Source of the DNA: a virus | Lineage: Duplodnaviria; Heunggongvirae; Uroviricota; Caudoviricetes | Length of the DNA: 8,892 bases | Reading direction: 5' to 3' (one strand) | Virus record (IMG/VR): IMGVR_UViG_2778261527_000002 | Shown here: positions 1-8,892 of the stretch, piece after piece | Layout of the letters: every line of letters begins with the position of its first letter | Position numbering within the stretch: the stretch's first letter is position 1 | The notes under the pieces: model-generated | The model's database searches: none | Told to the model about the DNA's origin: nothing | The model's input: the letters and a program-made list of their open reading frames with translations, nothing else | Translations under genes and position numbers: made by a program

Positions 1-1
1 G

Positions 2-67
2 TACGCCAGAGTGGGCGCGAGACGTTACGACAACTGGAAGCTAAAACTGGGGCAACAAGATATCTGA
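2..67 (+). CDS. 3' end of an upstream gene running off the left edge (…YARVGARRYDNWKLKLGQQDI*); product unknown
   Basis: Frame is open from the window start to TGA at 65-67, which overlaps the next ATG (TGATG), suggesting translational coupling. Only 21 codons visible. Confidence 0.3.
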   Translation, partial: YARVGARRYDNWKLKLGQQDI

Positions 68-366
68 TGAGCGTTCTTGCCAGAGAGCTGGTTGCCAGTG
101 GCGATGTATACAACTCTGGTTACGGGTTATTCCCGTCTGAACAGGCTCGTAAGGACTGGCAAAATGCCCGCAAAAAACTCTCAAGGGCAAAGCTGAAGAA
201 AAAAACATCTGTGGTTGATCCGGACCTTATCTGGTCGTTACCAGACGGAGAAATACGCCGCTATGACAGGCGTCTGAACATAATCTGTCGCGAGTGCCGG
301 AATAGTGAAGTTATGCAGCGTGTACTGGCTTTCTATCAGGGGAATTTTCAGGAGGCGGCGCAGTGA
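67..366 (+). CDS. hypothetical protein, 99 aa, basic, one CxxC motif (ICRECRN)
   Basis: Complete ORF in the track; its start overlaps the upstream stop and its stop overlaps the next start (GTGA at 363-366). No family recognised. Confidence 0.5.
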   Translation: MSVLARELVASGDVYNSGYGLFPSEQARKDWQNARKKLSRAKLKKKTSVVDPDLIWSLPDGEIRRYDRRLNIICRECRNSEVMQRVLAFYQGNFQEAAQ

Positions 367-563
367 GCAGGATTGACTACCAGGAATTGGCTGCTGCTAA
401 CGCTTTCCTAGCTGATGTACGGGCGGTGGCGTTTAACGACCTTTGCGCGGCGTTTGCCAGGCACGCAAAAGTTGCAGGACTGGATGATGCCGATACCGTA
501 ACGCTTAAGGAAGTGACAGAAGCATTGTTGCATTGTGCGGAACAGATTCGCGCGCCTGAATAA
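363..563 (+). CDS. hypothetical protein, 66 aa, Ala-rich, probable GTG start
   Basis: ORF in the track; GTG start overlaps the stop of the preceding ORF; followed by an AT-rich intergenic region. Confidence 0.4.
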   Translation: MSRIDYQELAAANAFLADVRAVAFNDLCAAFARHAKVAGLDDADTVTLKEVTEALLHCAEQIRAPE

Positions 564-658
564 TTAAATTTAGTGTTGTAAATAAAATTTAATCCTTAAC
601 CGGAGGGATTTCTGCACCCTCAGAACATCAGGAGGCCGCCCGAAAGGGCGGTAATGAA

Positions 659-841
659 ATGCGAAAGTTCAGAATAATTATTGAAACGGGAATAGCTGGT
701 GGAGATTTTGAGGATGTATTCGAAGTGGATGATGGTGCGACACCAGATGAAATACAGGACGAAGCAAAAGAAATTTTCTTTAACTACTGCAATTACTCAT
801 ATCACGAAATAAAAGATGAGGAGGAAGAACAAAATGGCTGA
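659..841 (+). CDS. small highly acidic protein, 60 aa (about 18 Asp/Glu, C-terminal EEEE)
   Basis: ORF in the track; AT-rich region and two hairpins upstream (603-621, 636-651); its last codons overlap the next gene's start (ATGGCTGA at 834-841). Confidence 0.5.
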   Translation: MRKFRIIIETGIAGGDFEDVFEVDDGATPDEIQDEAKEIFFNYCNYSYHEIKDEEEEQNG

Positions 842-1010
842 TTTTGGTTCAACTAAATACAACGTCAGTTTTGAAGAATGGCATGAACTGTTAATGGACT
901 ATGCAGAGTTACGCGGTGGAAGTGCCGCTGATGCTGAAGCATGGCGTGATGACTACGAAGCAGGAAAAACTCCGGTCGAAGCATATTGTGATGAGTGGGG
1001 CGATGAATGA
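834..1010 (+). CDS. small highly acidic, aromatic-rich protein, 58 aa (MADFGSTKYNVSFEEWHELL…)
   Basis: AGGAGG at 819-824 sits 9 nt upstream of ATG 834, so 834 is preferred over the track's 816 start. Stop overlaps the next start (ATGA at 1007-1010). Confidence 0.55.
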   Translation: MADFGSTKYNVSFEEWHELLMDYAELRGGSAADAEAWRDDYEAGKTPVEAYCDEWGDE

Positions 1011-1522
1011 GCGAGATTAATTATCAGGAAGGACATGAAACGGCAGGGCAGGCAAAACCAGTTGCATGGCGATATCGCTACGTGAAAAAAGGCATTACGG
1101 ACTCACAGGGGGAGCCGTGGGTTGGTGACTGGAAATATGTACCGACAAAAGAGGATTGCAACGACAGGCCGAGCTATGAAATTCAGGCGTTATTCACTGC
1201 CCCGCCTGTGCCACTGACATCAGAAGGACTGGTTAAAGCCGTGCGCTTTTATGAACAGGTAAAGCGTGAGAATCCACCAGTCGAAACAGGAGCATGGAAA
1301 GATGCTGTTGATTGGGTACTCAAAGAGGCCTGCAGTGCTGTCATTCTGGGTAAAGCCGACAACCCACCAGCTTCCGGCAATCAGGTTAGCGAATTAACAA
1401 TGTGGGTTAAACGACTGGTCAGCCAACTGAAAAAAGCCAAGCCGGACTGCAAATTACCGGAGAAGGCGATGGACTACCTGAAGCGAAACGGACTGATAAG
1501 CGTGGAGGATGTTTTACGGTGA
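1007..1522 (+). CDS. hypothetical protein, 171 aa
   Basis: Complete ORF, translationally coupled to the upstream acidic ORF by an ATGA overlap; last gene of the five-ORF operon. No family recognised. Confidence 0.6.
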   Translation: MSEINYQEGHETAGQAKPVAWRYRYVKKGITDSQGEPWVGDWKYVPTKEDCNDRPSYEIQALFTAPPVPLTSEGLVKAVRFYEQVKRENPPVETGAWKDAVDWVLKEACSAVILGKADNPPASGNQVSELTMWVKRLVSQLKKAKPDCKLPEKAMDYLKRNGLISVEDVLR

Positions 1523-1661
1523 GATAGTAAATGCATGTAATGAGACGGGGGGTGTGAGGGGAGGCTTCATCTGGATAGATCTTGCACCGTTCATATGTTA
1601 TAAAAACAATTCCTACTGTTAAATCGTTGTTTGTTTTAGTTGCTATATTTAAGGAGTGAAT

Positions 1662-1919
1662 ATGCAGTTAATTGTTGATTACCCAGATCATAACATTTAT
1701 TCATCTTTTGTGGATGCGGATGCTGAACTTCGAGAGTTAAATGGTGGGGCAGTAGTTGTAATAACGGTAAAAATACCTCTTACTAGCACATCGGAACAGT
1801 TGTTTAATAAATACACTTGCGGGGAAAGTCTTCGTATTAAATTGAGGAATGGCGATGAATGGAAAATGTATTTCGTTATGCTTGATGGAGGGCGCTATAT
1901 ATTTTCCTCGCACCTGTGA
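1662..1919 (+). CDS. hypothetical protein, 85 aa, in an AT-rich island
   Basis: Strong SD AAGGAG at 1651-1656 with a 5-nt spacer to ATG 1662 (preferred over GTG 1656 in the track). Local composition is visibly AT-rich compared with flanking DNA. Confidence 0.55.
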   Translation: MQLIVDYPDHNIYSSFVDADAELRELNGGAVVVITVKIPLTSTSEQLFNKYTCGESLRIKLRNGDEWKMYFVMLDGGRYIFSSHL

Positions 1920-1991
1920 TAAAAATGATGAGCCGAGACTGTATTTACGGGACGCTGAGAGAATACCATAGAAAAGCTTATCTAACTTAAG

Positions 1992-1997
1992 TAGAAT
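1992..1997 (+). promoter_or_regulatory. candidate -10 element (TAGAAT) for the hok/mok mRNA
   Basis: Lies about 6-8 nt upstream of the predicted hok mRNA 5' end (GCGGGTGCTTGAGG at 2003), which resembles the recalled R1 hok mRNA 5' end. No convincing -35 found. Confidence 0.3.
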
Positions 1998-2002
1998 TGC
2001 TG

Positions 2003-2016
2003 CGGGTGCTTGAGGC
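2003..2016 (+). promoter_or_regulatory. hok mRNA 5' fold-back (fbi-like) element, complementary to 2378..2392
   Basis: GCGGGTGCTTGAGG pairs with CCTCAACGCACCCGC in the 3' UTR (8 bp + 6 bp with a 1-nt bulge). Adjacent 5' hairpin CTATCTGCC/GGCAGATAG at 2016-2051. Confidence 0.5.
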
Positions 2017-2049
2017 TATCTGCCTCAGGCATGAACACCAAAGGCAGAT

Positions 2050-2123
2050 AGAGAAAAGCCCCAGTTAACATTACGCGTCCTGCAAGACGCTTAACATTAA
2101 TCTGAGGCTCAATCTATGAACGG
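2050..2123 (-). ncRNA. sok: Sok-like antisense RNA (antitoxin) of the hok/sok locus; ends approximate
   Basis: Minus-strand promoter with -35 TTGCCT (complement of 2153-2158), exact 17-nt spacer and -10 TAACCT (complement of 2130-2135), matching the recalled R1 sok promoter layout (TTGCGC-17-TATCCT). Predicted transcript overlaps the mok SD and start and contains a ~15-bp imperfect hairpin (2064-2099) followed by a U-rich tract. Confidence 0.45.
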
Positions 2124-2328
2124 CAAATCTAGGTTAGCCTCTTACGTGCCGAAAGGCAAGGAGAAGCAGGCTATGAAGCAGCAAAAGGCGATGTTAATCG
2201 CCCTGATCGTCATCTGTTTAACCGTCATAGTGACGGCACTGGTAACGAGGAAAGACCTCTGCGAGGTACGAATCCGAACCGGCCAGACGGAGGTCGCTGT
2301 CTTCACAGTCTACGAACCTGAGGAGTAA
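2116..2328 (+). CDS. mok: Mok-like reading frame (modulator of killing), 70 aa, in frame with and N-terminally extending hok
   Basis: ORF in the track starting 19 codons upstream of the hok ATG. An in-frame mok resembles chromosomal mokC-type loci as recalled, whereas R1 mok is out of frame. Confidence 0.45.
   Translation: MNGKSRLASYVPKGKEKQAMKQQKAMLIALIVICLTVIVTALVTRKDLCEVRIRTGQTEVAVFTVYEPEE
2130..2158 (-). promoter_or_regulatory. candidate sok promoter (-35 TTGCCT, 17-nt spacer, -10 TAACCT)
   Basis: Hexamers read directly from the reverse complement; position inside the mok 5' region matches the hok/sok paradigm. Confidence 0.45.
2173..2328 (+). CDS. hok: Hok/Gef-family type I toxin, 51 aa (MKQQKAMLIALIVICLTVIVTALVTRKDLCEVRIRTGQTEVAVFTVYEPEE)
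   Basis: Single transmembrane helix plus the conserved RKDLCEV…EVAVF…YE motif; near-identical to recalled HokD(RelF)/HokC(Gef). SD AAGGAGAAG lies upstream of ATG 2173. Confidence 0.85.
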   Translation: MKQQKAMLIALIVICLTVIVTALVTRKDLCEVRIRTGQTEVAVFTVYEPEE

Positions 2329-2335
2329 GAGACTT

Positions 2336-2357
2336 GGCGAGGGAGAAATCCCTCGCC
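2336..2357 (+). other. perfect 9-bp stem with GAAA tetraloop (GGCGAGGGA-GAAA-TCCCTCGCC) in the hok 3' UTR
   Basis: Exact inverted repeat read from the sequence, 8 nt after the hok stop codon; likely an mRNA-stabilising or folding element. Confidence 0.5.
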
Positions 2358-2377
2358 GCCTCTGATGTGTCAGGCAT

Positions 2378-2392
2378 CCTCAACGCACCCGC
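2378..2392 (+). promoter_or_regulatory. hok mRNA 3' fold-back element, complementary to the 5' end (2003..2016)
   Basis: Long-range complementarity, the hallmark of hok-family mRNAs. Confidence 0.5.
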
Positions 2393-2397
2393 ACTTA

Positions 2398-2417
2398 ACC
2401 CGCTTCGGCGTTTTTTC
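2398..2417 (+). terminator. candidate intrinsic terminator of the hok transcript (short CGC/GCG stem, UUCG loop, T6)
   Basis: ACCCGCTTCGGCG followed by TTTTTT. The stem is only 3 bp, so it is weak on its own; the same motif recurs in stronger form at 3063-3088. Confidence 0.4.
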
Positions 2418-2471
2418 CGTTGATTAACTCTAGTTATTAGAGAACCGAACTTTTATTGATGGGGCAGGGAG

Positions 2472-2864
2472 ATGAAGAAACTTGTTTTAGTCGCAGGTGT
2501 AATGATTGCAACAGTAATGTTGGGAGGGTGTGCAGCAAAGGTCGATCCAGCGTTGAAAGCAGAAGCAATGAAGCCACTAACATGTAATGATGAAAAGCAA
2601 TGTGACTTTTATTGGAAACGAGCGCAATTCTGGTTGGCTAATAATTCCTCATGGAAAATTCAAACGGCGACAGACACGCTAATTTCCACTTATAATCCCT
2701 CTCCAAATAGTCCATTCCTCGCTTATCAAGTGAGTAAAATGCCAAATGAAGATGGATCCTCAAGAATTTTCATCAAGCCTTTTTGCGATAATATGTTTGG
2801 CTGTCAACCAAACCCCTATCAGGCAGTTGTTTCCTTTAAAAACTTCGTTAAAACAGGGCAGTAG
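2472..2864 (+). CDS. predicted lipoprotein, 130 aa, Cys-rich mature domain, function unknown
   Basis: N-terminal MKKLVLVAGVMIATVMLGGC looks like a signal peptide with an L-G-G-C lipobox. GGGAG SD upstream of ATG 2472. Five further Cys in the mature part suggest periplasmic disulfides. Confidence 0.7.
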   Translation: MKKLVLVAGVMIATVMLGGCAAKVDPALKAEAMKPLTCNDEKQCDFYWKRAQFWLANNSSWKIQTATDTLISTYNPSPNSPFLAYQVSKMPNEDGSSRIFIKPFCDNMFGCQPNPYQAVVSFKNFVKTGQ

Positions 2865-3063
2865 TGTATAGCTTGGACGATAAATTATTAGTGAAAACGC
2901 CGTAAACCCTCACCCAATGTGGACTAAGCCTATCAAACATGACTGTGATGATTAGTCCGTAGTTGTTGCCTATGAAATCTGGATTGAGTCAGGGTTTAAT
3001 CCAATAATTATTCTATCGTTCCTTTACAAGTCCGGTATATTACTTTCAGTTTGTTTTAGCATA

Positions 3064-3088
3064 CCCGCTTCGGCGGGTTTTGTTTTTT
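3064..3088 (+). terminator. rho-independent terminator (CCCGC-TTCG-GCGGG stem-loop plus T-rich tract)
   Basis: 5-bp GC stem with UUCG tetraloop followed by TTTTGTTTTTT, at the end of a ~200-bp ORF-free stretch. Confidence 0.65.
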
Positions 3089-3160
3089 CCTGGCATTCTG
3101 GTTTACAATTCGCACGCCAGCCTGAACAACTGGCACCTGCTGCGCCAGCAGAGACAACCG

Positions 3161-3439
3161 ATGGCGCACGATACCAAATTACACAATTCTAATGATTCTG
3201 CCGTCTTTGCCAGCAGGCGCGGACGGCGTTTTCACGTATTCAAATCAGACTGGTTCCAGCATCCTCCATGCACTGAAGAGCAGGCGGAATGGATAATTCA
3301 GTGTTACCGCAGGCGCGGATACGAGGTTAAGAAAGCCCTCAGCCTCGATTATCGTCACTGGATAATCTATGTCAGGCTCCCTTATTCCGAACGCCCACCG
3401 CGCCCATCCCGCACATACCAGCAACGGATCTGGAGGTAA
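3161..3439 (+). CDS. hypothetical protein, about 92 aa ([16 protein letters not shown]…); may be a junction artefact
   Basis: The track ORF (3080..3439) begins inside the terminator T-run, so ATG 3161 is the more plausible start. No clear SD. Its 3' end overlaps the start of the J-derived ORF in another frame. Confidence 0.3.
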
Positions 3440-5174
3440 CGTGCGGATATTACTTCGACCTGTTCTGGTACCGGAGAAAGAAGCCATCGTGGATAACGGG
3501 GCGCACTTTGACGGTGACCAGAGCGGCACGGTGAATGGTGTCACGCCGCCAGCAGTTCAGCACCTGACCGCAGAAGTCACCGCAGACAGCGGGGAATACC
3601 AGGTGCTGGCGCGCTGGGACACGCCGAAGGTGGTGAAGGGGGTGAGCTTTATGCTTCGCCTGACCGTGGCAGCGGACGACGGCAGTGAGCGGTTGGTCAG
3701 CACGGCCCGGACGACGGAAACCACATATCGCTTCACGCAGCTGGCGCTGGGAAATTACAGGCTGACAGTCCGGGCGGTAAATGCATGGGGACAGCAGGGC
3801 GATCCGGCATCGGTATTGTTCCGGATCGCCGCACCGGCAGCGCCGTCGCGGATTGAGCTGACGCCGGGCTATTTTCAGATAACCGCCACGCCGCATCTTG
3901 CGGTTTATGATCCGACGGTACAGTTTGAGTTCTGGTTCTCGGAAAAGCGGATTGCGGATATCAGGCAGGTTGAAACCACAGCCCGCTATCTTGGTACGGC
4001 GCTGTACTGGATAGCCGCCAGTATCAATATCAAACCGGGCCATGATTATTACTTTTATATCCGCAGTGTGAACACCGTAGGCAAATCGGCATTTGTGGAG
4101 GCCGTCGGTCGGGCGAGCGATGATGCATCCGGCTATCTGGATTTTTTCAAAGGCGAGATAGGGAAAACCCATCTGGCTCAGGAGCTGTGGACGCAGATTG
4201 ATAACGGTCAGCTTGCGCCTGACCTGGCTGAAATCAGGACGTCCATTACGGATGTCAGCAATGAAATCACGCAGACCGTCAATAAGAAACTGGAAGACCA
4301 GAGTGCGGCAATTCAGCAGATACAGAAGGTTCAGGTTGATACAAATAATAACCTGAACAGCATGTGGGCTGTGAAGCTGCAGCAGATGCAGGACGGACGC
4401 CTTTATATCGCGGGTATTGGTGCCGGTATTGAGAACACCCCTGACGGCATGCAGAGTCAGGTGCTGCTGGCGGCGGACAGGATTGCGATGGTTAATCCTG
4501 CGAATGGCAACACAAAACCGATGTTTGTTGGTCAGGGTGATCAGATATTCATGAACGACGTGTTCCTGAAACGCCTGACGGCCCCCACCATTACCAGCGG
4601 TGGAAATCCACCGGCATTTTCCCTGACACCGGACGGGCGACTGACGGCGAAAAATGCGGATATCAGTGGCAGTGTGAATGCGAACGCCGGGACGCTCAAC
4701 AATGTCACGATAAATGAAAACTGTCGGGTTCTGGGAAAACTGTCTGCGAACCAGATTGAAGGCGATCTCGTTAAAACAGTGGGCAAAGCTTTCCCCCGGG
4801 ACTCCCGTGCACCGGAGCGGTGGCCATCAGGGACCATTACCGTCAGGGTTTATGACGATCAGCCGTTTGACCGGCAGATTGTTATTCCCGCGGTGGCGTT
4901 TCGTGGCGCTAAACATGAGCGGGAGAATAACGATATTTATTCGTCATGCCGCCTGATAGTGAAGAAAAACGGTGCTGAAATTTATAACCGTACCGCGCTG
5001 GATAATACGCTGGTTTATACAGGTGTTATTGATATGCCTGCTGGTCGCGGTCACATGACGCTGGAGTTTTCGGTATCAGCGTGGCTGGTAAATGACTGGT
5101 ATCCCACAGCCAGTATCAGTGATTTGCTGGTTGTGGTGATGAAGAAATCCACCGCAGGCATCAGTATCAGCTGA
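3369..5174 (+). pseudogene. J: 5'-truncated tail-tip host-specificity protein J (about the C-terminal half, with the receptor-binding end); J similarity starts near 3465
   Basis: From [16 protein letters not shown] onward the translation tracks the recalled C-terminal half of lambda J (e.g. [32 protein letters not shown]). The first ~33 codons are unrelated, the frame closes at a TAA at 3363-3365, and there is no SD at ATG 3369. Whether the fragment is expressed is unknown. Confidence 0.75.
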
Positions 5175-5193
5175 ATTTTATAACCCATATACG

Positions 5194-5219
5194 GGCGCCA
5201 GAAATGGCGCCTTTTTTAT
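5194..5219 (+). terminator. rho-independent terminator downstream of J (GGCGCCA-GAAA-TGGCGCC plus T6)
   Basis: Perfect 7-bp GC-rich stem, GAAA loop, followed by TTTTTTATT. Confidence 0.75.
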
Positions 5220-5241
5220 TGCAGAAAAGCGAGAGGTAATT

Positions 5242-5841
5242 ATGCGTAAAGTTTGTGCAGCCATTTTGTCCGCAGCCATCTGTCTGGCCGTATCCGGTGC
5301 GCCTGCATGGGCGTCTGAGCATCAGTCCACGCTGAGCGCGGGGTATCTTCATGCCCGGACGAACGTTCCCGGCAGTGATGATCTGAACGGGATTAACGTG
5401 AAATACCGTTATGAGTTTACGGACACACTGGGGATGGTGACGTCGTTCAGCTATGCAGGAGACAAGAATCGCCAGATTACCCGTTACAGCGATACCCGCT
5501 GGCATGAAGATTCCGTTCGTAACCGCTGGTTCAGCGTAATGGCGGGGCCGTCTGTGCGCGTGAATGAATGGTTCAGCGCGTATGCGATGGCGGGTGTGGC
5601 TTACAGCCGTGTGTCGACTTTCTCCGGGGATTATCTCCGCGTAACTGACAACAAGGGGAAAAAGCACGATGTGCTGACCGGAAGTGATGACGGTCGCCAC
5701 AGCAACACGTCTCTGGCGTGGGGAGCTGGCGTGCAGTTTAACCCGACCGAATCCGTGGCCATTGATGTCGCTTATGAAGGCTCCGGCAGTGGTGACTGGC
5801 GCACTGACGGGTTCATCGTGGGTGTTGGTTATAAATTCTGA
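5242..5841 (+). CDS. lom: Lom outer-membrane protein (Ail/Lom/OmpX family beta-barrel), 199 aa
   Basis: Signal peptide [25 protein letters not shown]-terminal aromatic residue (…GVGYKF), and a translation matching recalled lambda Lom. Sits between J and stf as in lambda. Confidence 0.9.
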
Positions 5842-5867
5842 TTAGCCAGGTAACACAGTGTTATGAC

Positions 5868-5895
5868 AGCCCGCCGGTTCAGGCGGGCTTTTTTG
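5868..5895 (+). terminator. rho-independent terminator downstream of lom (AGCCCGCC-GGTTCA-GGCGGGCT plus T6)
   Basis: Perfect 8-bp stem followed by TTTTTTG. Confidence 0.75.
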
Positions 5896-5905
5896 TGGGG
5901 TGAAT

Positions 5906-8892
5906 ATGGCAGTAAAAATTTCAGGTGTACTGAAAGACGGCACAGGAAAACCGGTACAGAACTGCACAATCCAGCTGAAAGCAAAACGTAACAGTACCAC
6001 GGTGGTGGTGAACACGCTGGCATCTGAAAATCCGGATGAAGCCGGGCGTTACAGTATGGACGTTGAGTACGGTCAGTACAGCGTTATTCTGTTGGTGGAA
6101 GGATTCCCGCCGTCACATGCCGGGACCATCACAGTGTATGAAGATTCCCGACCCGGTACGCTGAATGATTTTCTCGGTGCCATGACGGAGGATGATGCCC
6201 GTCCGGAGGCACTGCGCCGCTTTGAACTGATGGTGGAAGAGGTGGCGCGTAACGCGTCCGCAGTGGCGCAGAACACAGCAGCCGCGAAGAAGTCAGCCAG
6301 CGATGCCGGCACATCAGCCCGTGAGGCGGCAACCCGTGCGACTGATGCTGCAGGCTCAGCACGTGCAGCCAGCACGTCAGCCGGACAGGCCGCGTCGTCG
6401 GCTCAGTCAGCGTCTTCCAGCGCAGGAACGGCATCAACAAAGGCCACTGAAGCATCAAAAAGTGCTGCCGCCGCAGAGTCTTCAAAAAGCGCGGCAGCTA
6501 CCAGTGCCAGTGCCGCGAAAACGTCAGAAACGAATGCTGCAGCGTCACAACAATCAGCAGCCACTTCTGCATCCACCGCGACGACGAAAGCGTCAGAAGC
6601 TGCCACCTCAGCCCGGGATGCGGCGGCTTCAAAAGAGGCGGCAAAATCATCAGAAACGAGCGCAGCCTCGAGCGCCAGTAGTGCAGCCTCCTCGGCAATG
6701 GCGGCAGGCAATTCCGCGAAGGCGGCCAAAACGTCTGAGACAAACGCTAAGTCCTCTGAAACGGCAGCAGAACAGAGTGCCTCCGCAGCAGCAGGCTCAA
6801 AAACAGCGGCTGCATTATCTGCCAGTGCCGCGTCAACAAGTGCCGGGCAGGCCTCAGCCAGTGCCACCGCCGCCGGAAAATCGGCAGAAAGCGCCGCATC
6901 GTCCGCTTCAACAGCCACAACGAAGGCTGGCGAAGCCACTGAACAGGCCAGCGCAGCAGCGAGGTCTGCTTCCGCAGCGAAGACATCCGAGACGAACGCG
7001 AAAGCGTCGGAAACCAGCGCAGAATCCTCAAAAACGGCTGCCGCATCGTCCGCCAGTTCGGCGGCGTCATCGGCATCATCTGCGTCTGCTTCAAAAGATG
7101 AGGCGACCAGACAGGCATCAGCAGCGAAAGGCAGCGCCACGACGGCATCCACGAAGGCGACAGAGGCAGCTGGTAGTGCGACGGCGGCAGCTCAGAGCAA
7201 AAGTACGGCGGAATCCGCGGCAACGCGCGCCGAGACAGCAGCAAAACGGGCAGAGGATATTGCATCCGCCGTGGCGCTTGAGGATGCGAGCACGACGAAA
7301 AAGGGGATAGTACAGCTCAGCAGTGCGACCAACAGCACTTCCGAGTCACTGGCGGCAACGCCAAAGGCAGTAAAATCAGCCTATGACAATGCAGAGAAAC
7401 GTCTGCAGAAAGACCAGAACGGCGCTGATATACCCGATAAGGGACGCTTCCTGAACAACATTAACGCGGTCAGTAAAACAGACTTTGCTGATAAGCGTGG
7501 TATGCGTTATGTGCGGGTTAACGCTCCTGCAGGTGCAATATCTGGAAGATATTACCCTGTTGTTGTTATGCGTTCTGCTGGCTCAGTAAGCGAACTGGCA
7601 TCAAGGGTCATTATCACCACGGCAACGCGAACCGCAGGCGATCCGATGAATAACTGCGAGTTTAACGGGTTTGTTATGCCTGGTGGCTGGACTGACAGGG
7701 GGCGTTATGCTTATGGAATGTTCTGGCAATATCAAAACAATGAACGAGCCATCCACTCAATAATGATGAGTAATAAGGGCGATGATTTGCGCTCTGTGTT
7801 CTATGTTGATGGTGCTGCTTTCCCTGTTTTTGCGTTTATTGAAGATGGCCTGTCAATATCCGCACCTGGTGCTGATCTCGTTGTTAATGATACGACCTAT
7901 AAGTTTGGGGCAACAAATCCGGCGACTGAATGTATCGCGGCGGACGTTATCCTTGATTTTAAGAGTGGCCGTGGTTTTTATGAGTCCCATTCGTTAATCG
8001 TTAACGATAACTTGTCGTGCAAAAAACTTTTTGCCACAGACGAAATTGTAGCGCGTGGTGGTAATCAGATTCGAATGATAGGTGGGGAGTATGGTGCATT
8101 ATGGCGTAATGATGGCGCTAAAACTTACCTGCTGCTTACCAATCAAGGTGATGTTTATGGTGGCTGGAATACATTAAGACCGTTTGCTATTGATAACGCA
8201 ACCGGCGAACTGGTTATTGGAACCAAACTGTCCGCAAGTCTGAACGGTAATGCATTAACAGCAACAAAGCTGCAAACGCCAAGACTGGTTTCTGGTGTTG
8301 AGTTTGATGGTTCCAAAGATATTACTTTAACCGCCGCGCATGTGGCTGCTTTTGCCAGAAGGGCAACGGATACATATGCCGATGCGGATGGTGGCGTTCC
8401 CTGGAATGCCGAATCAGGCGCTTATAATGTCACCCGCTCTGGCGACAGCTATATTCTGGTTAACTTCTATACCGGAGTCGGAAGTTGCCGGACCCTGCAG
8501 ATGAAGGCGCATTACAGAAATGGTGGTCTGTTCTACCGTTCTTCAAGAGATGGCTATGGTTTTGAGGAAGACTGGGCAGAAGTTTATACCTCGAAAAATC
8601 TTCCACCAGAAAGCTACCCAGTCGGCGCACCAATCCCGTGGCCATCAGATACCGTTCCGTCTGGTTATGCCCTGATGCAGGGGCAGACTTTTGACAAATC
8701 TGCCTACCCGAAACTTGCTGCCGCTTATCCGTCAGGCGTGATCCCTGATTTGCGTGGCTGGACGATTAAGGGCAAGCCCGCCAGTGGTCGTGCCGTATTG
8801 TCTCAGGAACAGGATGGCATTAAATCGCATACCCACAGCGCCAGCGCATCCAGTACGGATTTGGGGACGAAAACCACATCGTCGTTTGATTA
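5906..8892 (+). CDS. stf: side tail fibre protein Stf, 3'-partial (about 995 codons, runs off the window end)
   Basis: N-terminus [31 protein letters not shown]… and C-terminal segment [76 protein letters not shown]… match recalled lambda Stf. Hand translation found no stop from 5906 to 8890. Confidence 0.9.
6250..7300 (+). repeat. low-complexity Ala/Ser/Thr-rich coding repeats (recurring [17 protein letters not shown]-type units) in the Stf shaft
   Basis: GC-rich imperfect tandem repetition visible in DNA and protein; it produces long spurious ORFs in other frames on both strands. Confidence 0.7.

Follow-up and report, generated by a model that had tools for sequence, protein, structure and literature searches.

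A probable ren/nin-equivalent accessory segment in the rightward early operon of a lambdoid Escherichia coli prophage

The window examined here is a stretch of 8,892 nucleotides (nt) assigned to a virus of the Caudoviricetes (IMG/VR record IMGVR_UViG_2778261527_000002), and its first 1,522 positions carry five small, tightly packed open reading frames (ORFs), all on the + strand, whose products an earlier sequence-only reading had found unrecognisable. The block is likely to be the counterpart of the ren/nin accessory segment, in the delayed-early rightward operon (pR-type) of a Rac/Qin-like lambdoid E. coli prophage. All five products belong to PHROG families and two of them to Pfam families as well (DUF977 and DUF7167), and what had been five unknown ORFs resolves into a recognisable layout consisting of a Ren homologue, two shuffled Ea22-like genes and a conserved pair of acidic proteins. 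The importance of this is modest. The block represents ordinary and highly mosaic lambdoid prophage architecture, with an organisation that is well supported and an expression pattern deduced from position and sequence scans. It nevertheless corrects a false gene boundary, offers a clean example of lambdoid early-operon accessory genes reshuffled at conserved junctions between the pL and pR arms, and includes an acidic gene cassette that ranks among the commonest uncharacterised gene pairs of E. coli prophages and is the only part with some discovery potential.

Gene boundaries and operon position

The block was read against the complete genome of E. coli strain 2009C-3133 (NZ_CP013025), which holds an intact prophage (L001 below) and matches window 1-3475 at 100% identity; the RefSeq annotation of this genome was used for the boundaries in Table 1. 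The sequence-only reading had joined the ORFs through four overlapping stop/start strings, all of which are present in the sequence where it placed them. Three of them are gene boundaries in RefSeq as well: GTGA, where the DUF977 stop overlaps the GTG start of the 66-amino-acid (aa) ORF (363-366), ATGGCTGA, an 8-nt overlap of the DUF7167 gene and the 58-aa ORF (834-841), and ATGA, shared by the 58-aa and 171-aa ORFs (1007-1010). The remaining string, TGATG (65-69), was rejected as a gene boundary, its TGA (65-67) lying in frame 2, where the 42-codon ORF has no support, and its ATG67 being the internal Met43 of a 141-aa DUF977 protein.

Frame 1 of the DUF977 gene is open from the first base of the window and continues upstream in the reference genome to a GTG 60 nt to the left, preceded by GGAGG. 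The 99-aa protein that had been proposed as a separate gene was rejected as a fragment of this 141-aa product, which matches Pfam DUF977 at 8.5e-30 over profile positions 1-134 of 134, the fragment covering 48-134 only. The exact 141-aa sequence occurs on 777 contigs, and DUF977 copies differ from one another at the third codon positions of frame 1, with a ratio of nonsynonymous to synonymous differences (pN/pS) of 0.03. The early operon of the prophage does extend leftward, as had been supposed; the gene that crosses the left edge is DUF977 itself and not a separate one.

Table 1. Features of the five-gene block in window coordinates, with the number of complete E. coli genomes (out of 5426) that match each module. 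CDS, coding sequence.
Feature	Window position	Strand	Support	Genomes with at least 80% coverage	Genomes with any match
DUF977 / Ren-like gene, 141 aa ('LygF' in phage records)	-59..366 (3' 122 codons inside window, 1..366)	+	RefSeq CDS, L001 11941-12366		
Coupling junction DUF977/66-aa ORF: GGAGG 347-351, 7 nt, GTG start 363, DUF977 TGA 364-366	347..366	+	sequence		
66-aa ORF	363..563	+	RefSeq CDS; PHROG 27745		
Spacer/leader of DUF7167 cassette, 95 nt, non-coding	564..658	+	sequence conservation		
DUF7167 gene, 60 aa	659..841	+	RefSeq CDS; Pfam DUF7167; PHROG 1997		
58-aa ORF	834..1010	+	RefSeq CDS; PHROG 519		
171-aa mosaic ORF	1007..1522	+	RefSeq CDS; PHROG 660		
Whole array	1-1700			28	4288
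66-aa ORF module	367-563			121	133
Leader + DUF7167 + 58-aa module	564-1010			1754	2592
171-aa ORF module	1011-1522			295	1463

In the annotated frames, pN/pS was also low for DUF7167 (0.10), for the 58-aa ORF (0.10) and for residues 1-115 of the 171-aa ORF (0.30), and it was clearly higher in both other frames of these three, reaching 3-5 out of frame for DUF7167; for DUF977 the other frames gave no computable value because pS was zero there. Window 1-1522 is real coding DNA, and four of the five ORFs show purifying selection.

Conservation of the ORFs and of their overlaps in related prophages, on which the sequence-only reading had staked its operon, was found at three junctions. Among 80 DUF7167-bearing viral contigs, the 58-aa ORF adjoins in 79, the 8-nt overlap and the identical ATG of the 58-aa ORF are kept in 78, the ATGA into the next gene is kept in 77, and the gene that follows begins MSEINYQE in 67. 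GTGA is found at the 3' end of 56 of 66 DUF977 genes with differing downstream partners, the ORF that starts there being a methyltransferase gene, one of several unrelated ORFs or a short remnant, depending on the locus; the 66-aa ORF of the window occupies this place in seven loci. The junctions GTGA, ATGGCTGA and ATGA are conserved far beyond chance across dozens of related prophages.

The view of the block as one co-translated unit stands in part. The ORFs are co-oriented, packed and coupled, but the chain is broken by an overlooked 95-nt spacer between the 66-aa ORF and DUF7167, and the genes form two translationally coupled groups (DUF977 followed by the 66-aa ORF, and DUF7167 followed by the 58-aa and 171-aa ORFs), not one chain. 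Ribosomes would pass from gene to gene at the GTGA, ATGnnTGA and ATGA overlaps.

The position of the block in L001 points to the delayed-early region. The rightward order starts beside a divergent repressor and runs through small regulators, a YdaT-like gene and the replisome organizer (L001 10830-11900) to the five-gene block (11941-13522), which is followed by an 85-aa ORF, hok/sok, a lipoprotein gene, DUF968, RusA, Q (16859-17548) and the lysis and morphogenesis genes; replisome organizer, block and Q are all co-oriented. The layout of lambda is O-P-ren-ninB...ninI-Q, and the block occupies the ren/nin position. The lambda ren and nin genes are dispensable delayed-early genes of the pR transcript (PMC10695390), and the ren-nin region resembles the block in its tightly packed, overlapping, dispensable small genes. 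DUF977 stands directly after the replication module in six Rac/Qin-type phage or prophage records (L001, L003, L005-L007 and L009), where that module varies from an O-like gene alone to YdaU+YdaV+YdaW, and it is followed in related records by variable small ORFs (Ea22-like, EaA, methyltransferase and others) and then by hok and the Q module. The DUF7167 cassette takes the same operon position in another record (L008), where the DUF977 gene is absent. No Nin family (NinB-NinI) was matched by the block products in PHROG and Pfam scans.

Extension to the left, which had been recommended for locating the operon start, yielded the GTG of DUF977 described above and, by consensus scan, a pR-like promoter at L001 10015-10042, before the first rightward gene. 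The same kind of scan over window 1-1600 gave no + strand promoter-like site and no terminator-like site, which is weak evidence; the next + strand signals after the block are in the hok/sok region, together with a strong terminator-like hairpin past the lipoprotein gene. Read-through transcription from the pR-like promoter fits these scans. The genes of the block would be silent in the lysogen. On induction or infection, transcription that starts ahead of the replication genes, at the pR-like promoter, would read through them, as happens with lambda ren and the nin genes. Their products would act as dispensable modulators of early phage development, not as enzymes.

The sequence-only reading had also suggested an early or moron operon. 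Its first half is borne out, in that these are accessory genes of a kind that includes exclusion-related functions (the Ren homologue); the moron half is not, as no internal promoter-like or terminator-like sites were seen. The anti-defence and superinfection-exclusion roles that it put forward are conjecture, the Ren homology apart. We regard it as very unlikely that the block consists of morons or lysogenic-conversion genes which the repressed prophage would express to the advantage of its host, for example through superinfection exclusion. It is true that the family of the Ren-like protein, PHROG 142, stands in the PHROGs category 'moron, auxiliary metabolic gene and host takeover', that the GC content of DUF7167 (0.37) and of the 58-aa ORF (0.46) is below that of the neighbouring genes (0.49-0.54), and that the block survives in a defective prophage beside hok/sok. 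The genes are, however, coupled to or continuous with the replication operon at the delayed-early ren/nin position of lambda, a Stx phage carries the same cassette within its pL early operon, and the consensus scan, a weak test, found no promoter-like or terminator-like sites flanking or interrupting the block.

Other searches of the block returned no matches of note. The NCBIfam scan of the products gave none, the PADLOC defence-system models gave none to any product at E<=0.1 (that library is without anti-defence proteins), and Rfam, under both gathering and E-value thresholds, placed no family inside the block, its sole match being hok/sok outside it. Sequence searches against solved structures returned chance matches alone for all five products (designed repeat proteins and a weak GntR-type match). 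The word-indexed homologue lists were dominated by sequences more than 90% identical to the query, and the resulting alignments are shallow.

The Ren-like protein encoded by the DUF977 gene

The 141-aa protein matches PHROG 142, 'Ren-like exclusion protein', at 2.7e-48 over positions 1-115 of 116, and lambda Ren itself (gene ren, NP_040633) matches the same family at 1.6e-41. In a direct BLASTP comparison the two proteins align with E=2e-6 and 33% identity over the C-terminal 57 aa. The alignment contains a common 'TGAT' helix-turn-helix segment and a C-terminal motif, N[IL][IV]x[RK]ECRxSxxMxR[VI]LAxY, which can also be written NxxxxECRxSxxMxRVLAxY and is conserved with lambda Ren.

The AlphaFold2 (AF2) model of the protein has a mean predicted local distance difference test (pLDDT) score of 75, the 10-residue blocks that cover residues 11-60 averaging 87-93, and its N-terminal domain consists of three helices and a beta wing, that is, a winged helix. 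Foldseek searches with the model returned winged-helix matches of the GntR, MarR, Zalpha and Rpa2 types with probabilities up to 0.99 and template modelling (TM) scores of 0.6-0.77 on isolated domains, at E>=0.05; the search against BFVD gave generic winged-helix matches alone and did not recover lambda Ren. The protein is basic, with an isoelectric point (pI) of 9.8. Gene 1 is a lambda Ren homologue with a predicted N-terminal winged-helix domain. It resembles lambda ren in its position right after the replication genes and before Q on the same strand, as well as in its PHROG 142 membership, its winged-helix-type N-terminus and its C-terminal ECRxSxxMxRVLAxY motif, while lambda Ren itself has no score on the Pfam DUF977 model.

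Domain searches had been suggested for the supposed 99-aa protein and for the 171-aa protein; they led to Pfam DUF977 and PHROG 142 for the former and to PHROG 660 (1.9e-74) for the latter. The CxxC pattern noted in the 99-aa fragment, which raised the idea of zinc binding, is not a family feature, and that idea was rejected: the 141-aa product has just two cysteines, the first of which (C116) is a phenylalanine in lambda Ren, and the second alone is common to both proteins. 'LygF' was likewise set aside as a functional name, being only an inherited label that goes back to a prophage region of Salmonella Enteritidis. A species-wide scan for DUF977 found Escherichia/Shigella loci only, apart from contigs of metagenome-assembled genomes (MAGs) that are probably mis-binned, and the sole mention of DUF977 found in the literature is an unrelated Fic-domain survey.

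As to what the protein may do, ren mutants of lambda are reportedly sensitive to Rex exclusion, a result ascribed to Toothman and Herskowitz in 1980. Lambda Ren contacts RexA and RexB in two-hybrid assays, and a link to replication has been proposed (bioRxiv 10.1101/2021.04.19.439022; PMC3224144). If lambda Ren is a guide, with its action against Rex exclusion and its contacts with RexA and RexB, the protein of the window could bind DNA or protein at the interface of replication and exclusion. One possibility that we take seriously without favouring it is that the Ren-like protein mainly assists replication, as a DNA-binding winged-helix accessory factor that partners the replisome organizer, and is not primarily an anti-exclusion protein. 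DUF977 is invariably the next gene after the replication module, whichever type of module that is, and a winged-helix fold with a pI of 9.8 would suit such a role. Against this, lambda can form plaques without ren once polarity on Q is relieved (PMC10695390).

The acidic gene pair and its leader

Genes 3 and 4 encode two small and very acidic proteins. The DUF7167 protein (60 aa) has a pI of 4.05 and a net charge of about -13, and the 58-aa protein has the same pI and a net charge of about -12. The former is a full-length member of Pfam DUF7167 (9.1e-13) and matches PHROG 1997 at 7.9e-29, and the latter matches the C-terminal half of the PHROG 519 profile at 4.5e-23. Both families are small. 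At 50% identity, DUF7167 falls into 79 clusters among 1.84 billion representatives, almost all of them stand-alone proteins of 50-60 aa with a conserved pattern, and the 58-aa protein forms 70 clusters, the named ones all from Enterobacteriaceae and without fused domains. Sequence, profile and PDB searches, a 36-member DUF7167 profile included, found no solved, annotated or characterised relative of either protein, and no mention of DUF7167 was found in the literature.

The start of the 58-aa ORF is taken as ATG834, 8 nt inside the DUF7167 gene and behind GAGGAGG. The alternative ATG816 is an ACG in most loci and was rejected; its lack of conservation, together with the GAGGAGG before ATG834, decides for the latter.

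Ahead of DUF7167, the spacer is conserved in six of seven loci, and its last 33 nt are kept even in the Stx phage ArgO145. This leader consists of an AT-rich part, a GGAGG (631-635), a GC hairpin of 7 bp with a GAAA loop (635-652) and six unpaired nt (653-658) that run up to ATG659. The unit of GGAGG, hairpin and ATG is kept where the rest of the spacer has been replaced, the hairpin is present in both minimum-free-energy and centroid folds, and across 26 distinct variants 93.4% of cells pair. The GGAGG lies 23 nt upstream of ATG659, and the hairpin would cut the effective distance to about 7 nt.

A split Shine-Dalgarno sequence with a bridging hairpin has been described for phage T4 genes 38 and 25. 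The leader is alike in having a GGAGG too distant from its start codon and an intervening stable hairpin that would restore a spacing of about 7 nt; here this is known from sequence and folding. We infer that the hairpin bridges a split Shine-Dalgarno sequence to the DUF7167 start, and DUF7167 would in that case initiate independently of the genes before it. A role in RNA stability or processing is equally conceivable for the hairpin.

In phage ArgO145 the cassette and its leader are found in the early-left (pL) operon, before an Ea22-like gene, with the same hairpin and ATG. Genes 3 and 4 form a fixed two-gene cassette of very acidic proteins of about 60 aa that travels as a unit with its own leader. 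With the leader, it is present in 2592 of the 5426 complete E. coli genomes (about half), in up to six copies per genome.

We propose that the acidic pair binds a basic or nucleic-acid-binding target of the host or phage. A rival reading takes the cassette, or possibly all of the block, as an anti-defence module, in which the two acidic proteins, produced at once upon infection or induction, inhibit nucleic-acid-targeting immunity of the host, for instance as DNA mimics against restriction or another DNA-binding defence, and the Ren-like protein counters abortive infection. Net charges of -13 and -12 in about 60 residues each would suit such proteins, as would the strict co-inheritance, translational coupling and strong purifying selection of the pair, its presence in early operons on both the pR and the pL side, its very wide distribution in E. 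coli prophages, and the neighbouring Ren family, which the label of PHROG 142 ties to escape from Rex exclusion. Acidity alone, however, is a weak predictor, no homology to characterised proteins emerged from sequence, profile or PDB searches, DUF7167 has no literature behind it, and the defence-system models gave no match, though that library would not contain anti-defence proteins. We consider an anti-defence module improbable on balance, and slightly less probable again the specific form in which the cassette is an unrecognised two-component early inhibitor of a host nucleic-acid-binding target, such as a heterodimeric DNA mimic directed against restriction or another defence. The cassette is small enough for a quick test of anti-defence or host-takeover activity.

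Ea22-derived frames, module exchange and the rest of the window

Genes 2 and 5 can be traced to the Ead/Ea22 family (PF13935), which includes lambda Ea22 and P22 Ead. Ea22 consists of an N-terminus, a coiled coil and a variable C-terminal domain (CTD), and has a pro-lysogenic effect (PMC10834534; PMC7093339). The 66-aa ORF matches PHROG 27745 at 1.3e-43 as well as the C-termini of longer PHROGs, and it aligns with the last approximately 59 residues of gp17 of L008 (82% identity) and gp13 of a further record, L004 (74%), two proteins that score 1.6e-09 and 3.5e-39, respectively, against Pfam Ead_Ea22. In the alignment its N-terminus, MSRIDYQ, is joined directly to this CTD of about 59 aa and the coiled coil between them is gone.

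The 171-aa ORF, which shows partial PHROG matches in addition to PHROG 660, has three parts, namely an MSEINYQ N-terminus, a core at about 17-115 and a helical tail at about 119-171, with some 10 residues and no coiled coil between N-terminus and core. Alignment and a tblastn module map define the core as PVAWRYRY...LFTAPP plus two helices. Elsewhere this core is either a stand-alone 119-aa protein or the CTD of proteins with Ead_Ea22 or other long N-terminal regions, protein P0077 being one that carries both PF13935 and the core, and the helical tail is common to unrelated prophage proteins.

Both window ORFs share with the family the N-terminal MSxI(D/N)YQ, and each bears a CTD found on bona fide PF13935 proteins (gp13 of L004, gp17 of L008 and P0077). 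The family belongs to the exo-xis part of the early-left region, whereas the window ORFs lie in the rightward (pR) operon, and their CTDs are unrelated in sequence to the solved CTD of lambda Ea22 and have no PDB match. Since neither ORF reaches the threshold of Pfam Ead_Ea22, we describe them as derived from the family and not as members. Such Ea22-like pieces may shift the choice between lysis and lysogeny, or may sequester partners of the full-length proteins of Ea22-like type.

The 66-aa ORF, and perhaps the chimeric 171-aa ORF, could also be non-functional recombination debris of Ea22-like genes that is still open because it is young. We think this rather unlikely, although several observations speak for it. 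The 66-aa ORF amounts to an Ea22-like gene with its entire coiled coil gone, the pN/pS of its domain is 0.8-1.0 in every frame against two full-length relatives, so that no purifying selection is detectable, and it occurs in few genomes (Table 1). At the GTGA junction 23 of the 66 loci carry short remnant ORFs, for example one of 27 aa (MSEISYQAS...), the 171-aa form is complete in only some of the genomes that hold parts of it, and the CTD of lambda Ea22 alone has been reported inactive (PMC10834534). On the other side, the 66-aa ORF has an excellent Shine-Dalgarno sequence, an in-frame start and, at about 15% DNA divergence, neither stops nor indels. Short forms of this kind have a PHROG of their own (PHROG 27745), and residues 1-115 of the 171-aa ORF are constrained. 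A pN/pS near 1 is moreover seen between two full-length Ea22-like genes, which would mark a fast-evolving domain. For this Ea22-type CTD the segments compared were window 384-560, L004 5836-6012 and L008 3983-4159; with its open frame and lack of indels, the domain appears to be evolving fast or under diversifying selection.

We continue to favour the ren/nin-equivalent reading of the block, and a number of points count against it or against its parts, beyond the pN/pS of the 66-aa ORF, which may be a remnant, and the reported inactivity of an isolated CTD. Both Ea22-derived ORFs are without the central coiled coil, which makes up more than half of Ea22, neither matches any Pfam family at E<=0.1, Ead_Ea22 included, and with a mean pLDDT of 52 the AF2 model of the 171-aa protein was too poor for use in a fold search. 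Transfer of function to the Ren-like protein rests on an identity to lambda Ren of 31-33% only, lambda Ren has 96 aa compared with 141, and DUF977 proteins alone carry a basic, lysine-rich insertion of about 35 residues. No recognisable rexAB was found in the prophage of the window. Family membership of genes 3 and 4 (Pfam DUF7167 / PHROG 1997, and PHROG 519) gives the proteins a name but no explanation. For the leader hairpin, covariation was not above that of shuffles, the observed values being reached in 281-329 of 500; one pair shows a G-C to A-U double change, but at that pair six variants are mismatched. Read-through from the pR-like promoter is a prediction from position and consensus scans only, and a promoter that departs from the consensus could lie in the AT-rich half of the 95-nt spacer. 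Finally, the prophage of the window is itself defective, with Q to the tail genes deleted, and productive expression there may never occur.

The distribution of the modules suggests how such an array arises. That lambdoid phages and defective prophages exchange DNA, driven by homology, has been shown experimentally (PMC3945230). The modules of the block appear to recombine at conserved junctions, so that the exact five-gene array is rare and its parts are common (Table 1). Two junction motifs, caGGAGG-N7-GTGAGC...ATTGACTAYCAGG and ...GATGAATGAGCGAGATT..., recur before different partners and are plausible recombination points. The linker caGGAGG-N7-GTGAGCARGATTGACTAYCAGG at the 3' end of DUF977 (window 345-385) is also found before the full-length Ea22-like gene of L008 (3640-3700), where the upstream gene is another one; it looks like a portable site of module exchange.

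Some of the records used carry doubtful host or bin labels. L008 is PP818812, 'Actinobacillus phage vB_Apl-pPE4', and L010, L012, L013 and L015 are MAGs labelled Collinsella, Bacillota and Veillonella; all five carry DNA that is 92-95% identical to the E. coli prophage region, which may reflect contamination, mis-binning or an E. coli-derived phage.

The remainder of the window holds several further features. An 85-aa ORF at 1662-1919, in an AT-rich stretch, follows the block in several related loci (93-100% identity) and has no Pfam, PHROG, NCBIfam or PADLOC match. It is followed by a complete hok/sok/mok type I toxin-antitoxin locus at 2004-2328, annotated as hokD in RefSeq, where Rfam sok (RF01794) scores 111.7 bits at 2004-2178 and the 70-aa Mok/Hok ORF (2116-2328) matches Pfam HOK_GEF at 6.4e-22. 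A predicted lipoprotein of 130 aa (2472-2864) matches PHROG 16082 at 2.6e-84 and has a weakly Cor-like N-terminus (E=0.007); at 3063-3078, about 200 nt downstream of its gene, ACCCGCTTCGGCGGGT and a T-run after it make up the strong terminator-like hairpin.

In the 2009C-3133 prophage, the matches to window 1-3475 and to window 3468-8892 lie about 23 kb from each other, and in the window they overlap by 8 bp at 3468-3475, GTACCGGA; the prophage of the window therefore carries an internal deletion of 23 kb. In the junction region (3441-3475) the first approximately 11 codons of the DUF968 gene continue, in frame, into the part that encodes the C-terminus of tail protein J (ORF 3369-5174); RusA, Q, the genes for lysis and for the head, and most tail genes are lost with the deletion. 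Further downstream, window 6073-7338 has long ORFs in several frames and on both strands (335, 249 and 172 aa, among others) inside the N-terminal gene of the tail fibre, which indicates a strongly composition-biased or repetitive stretch.

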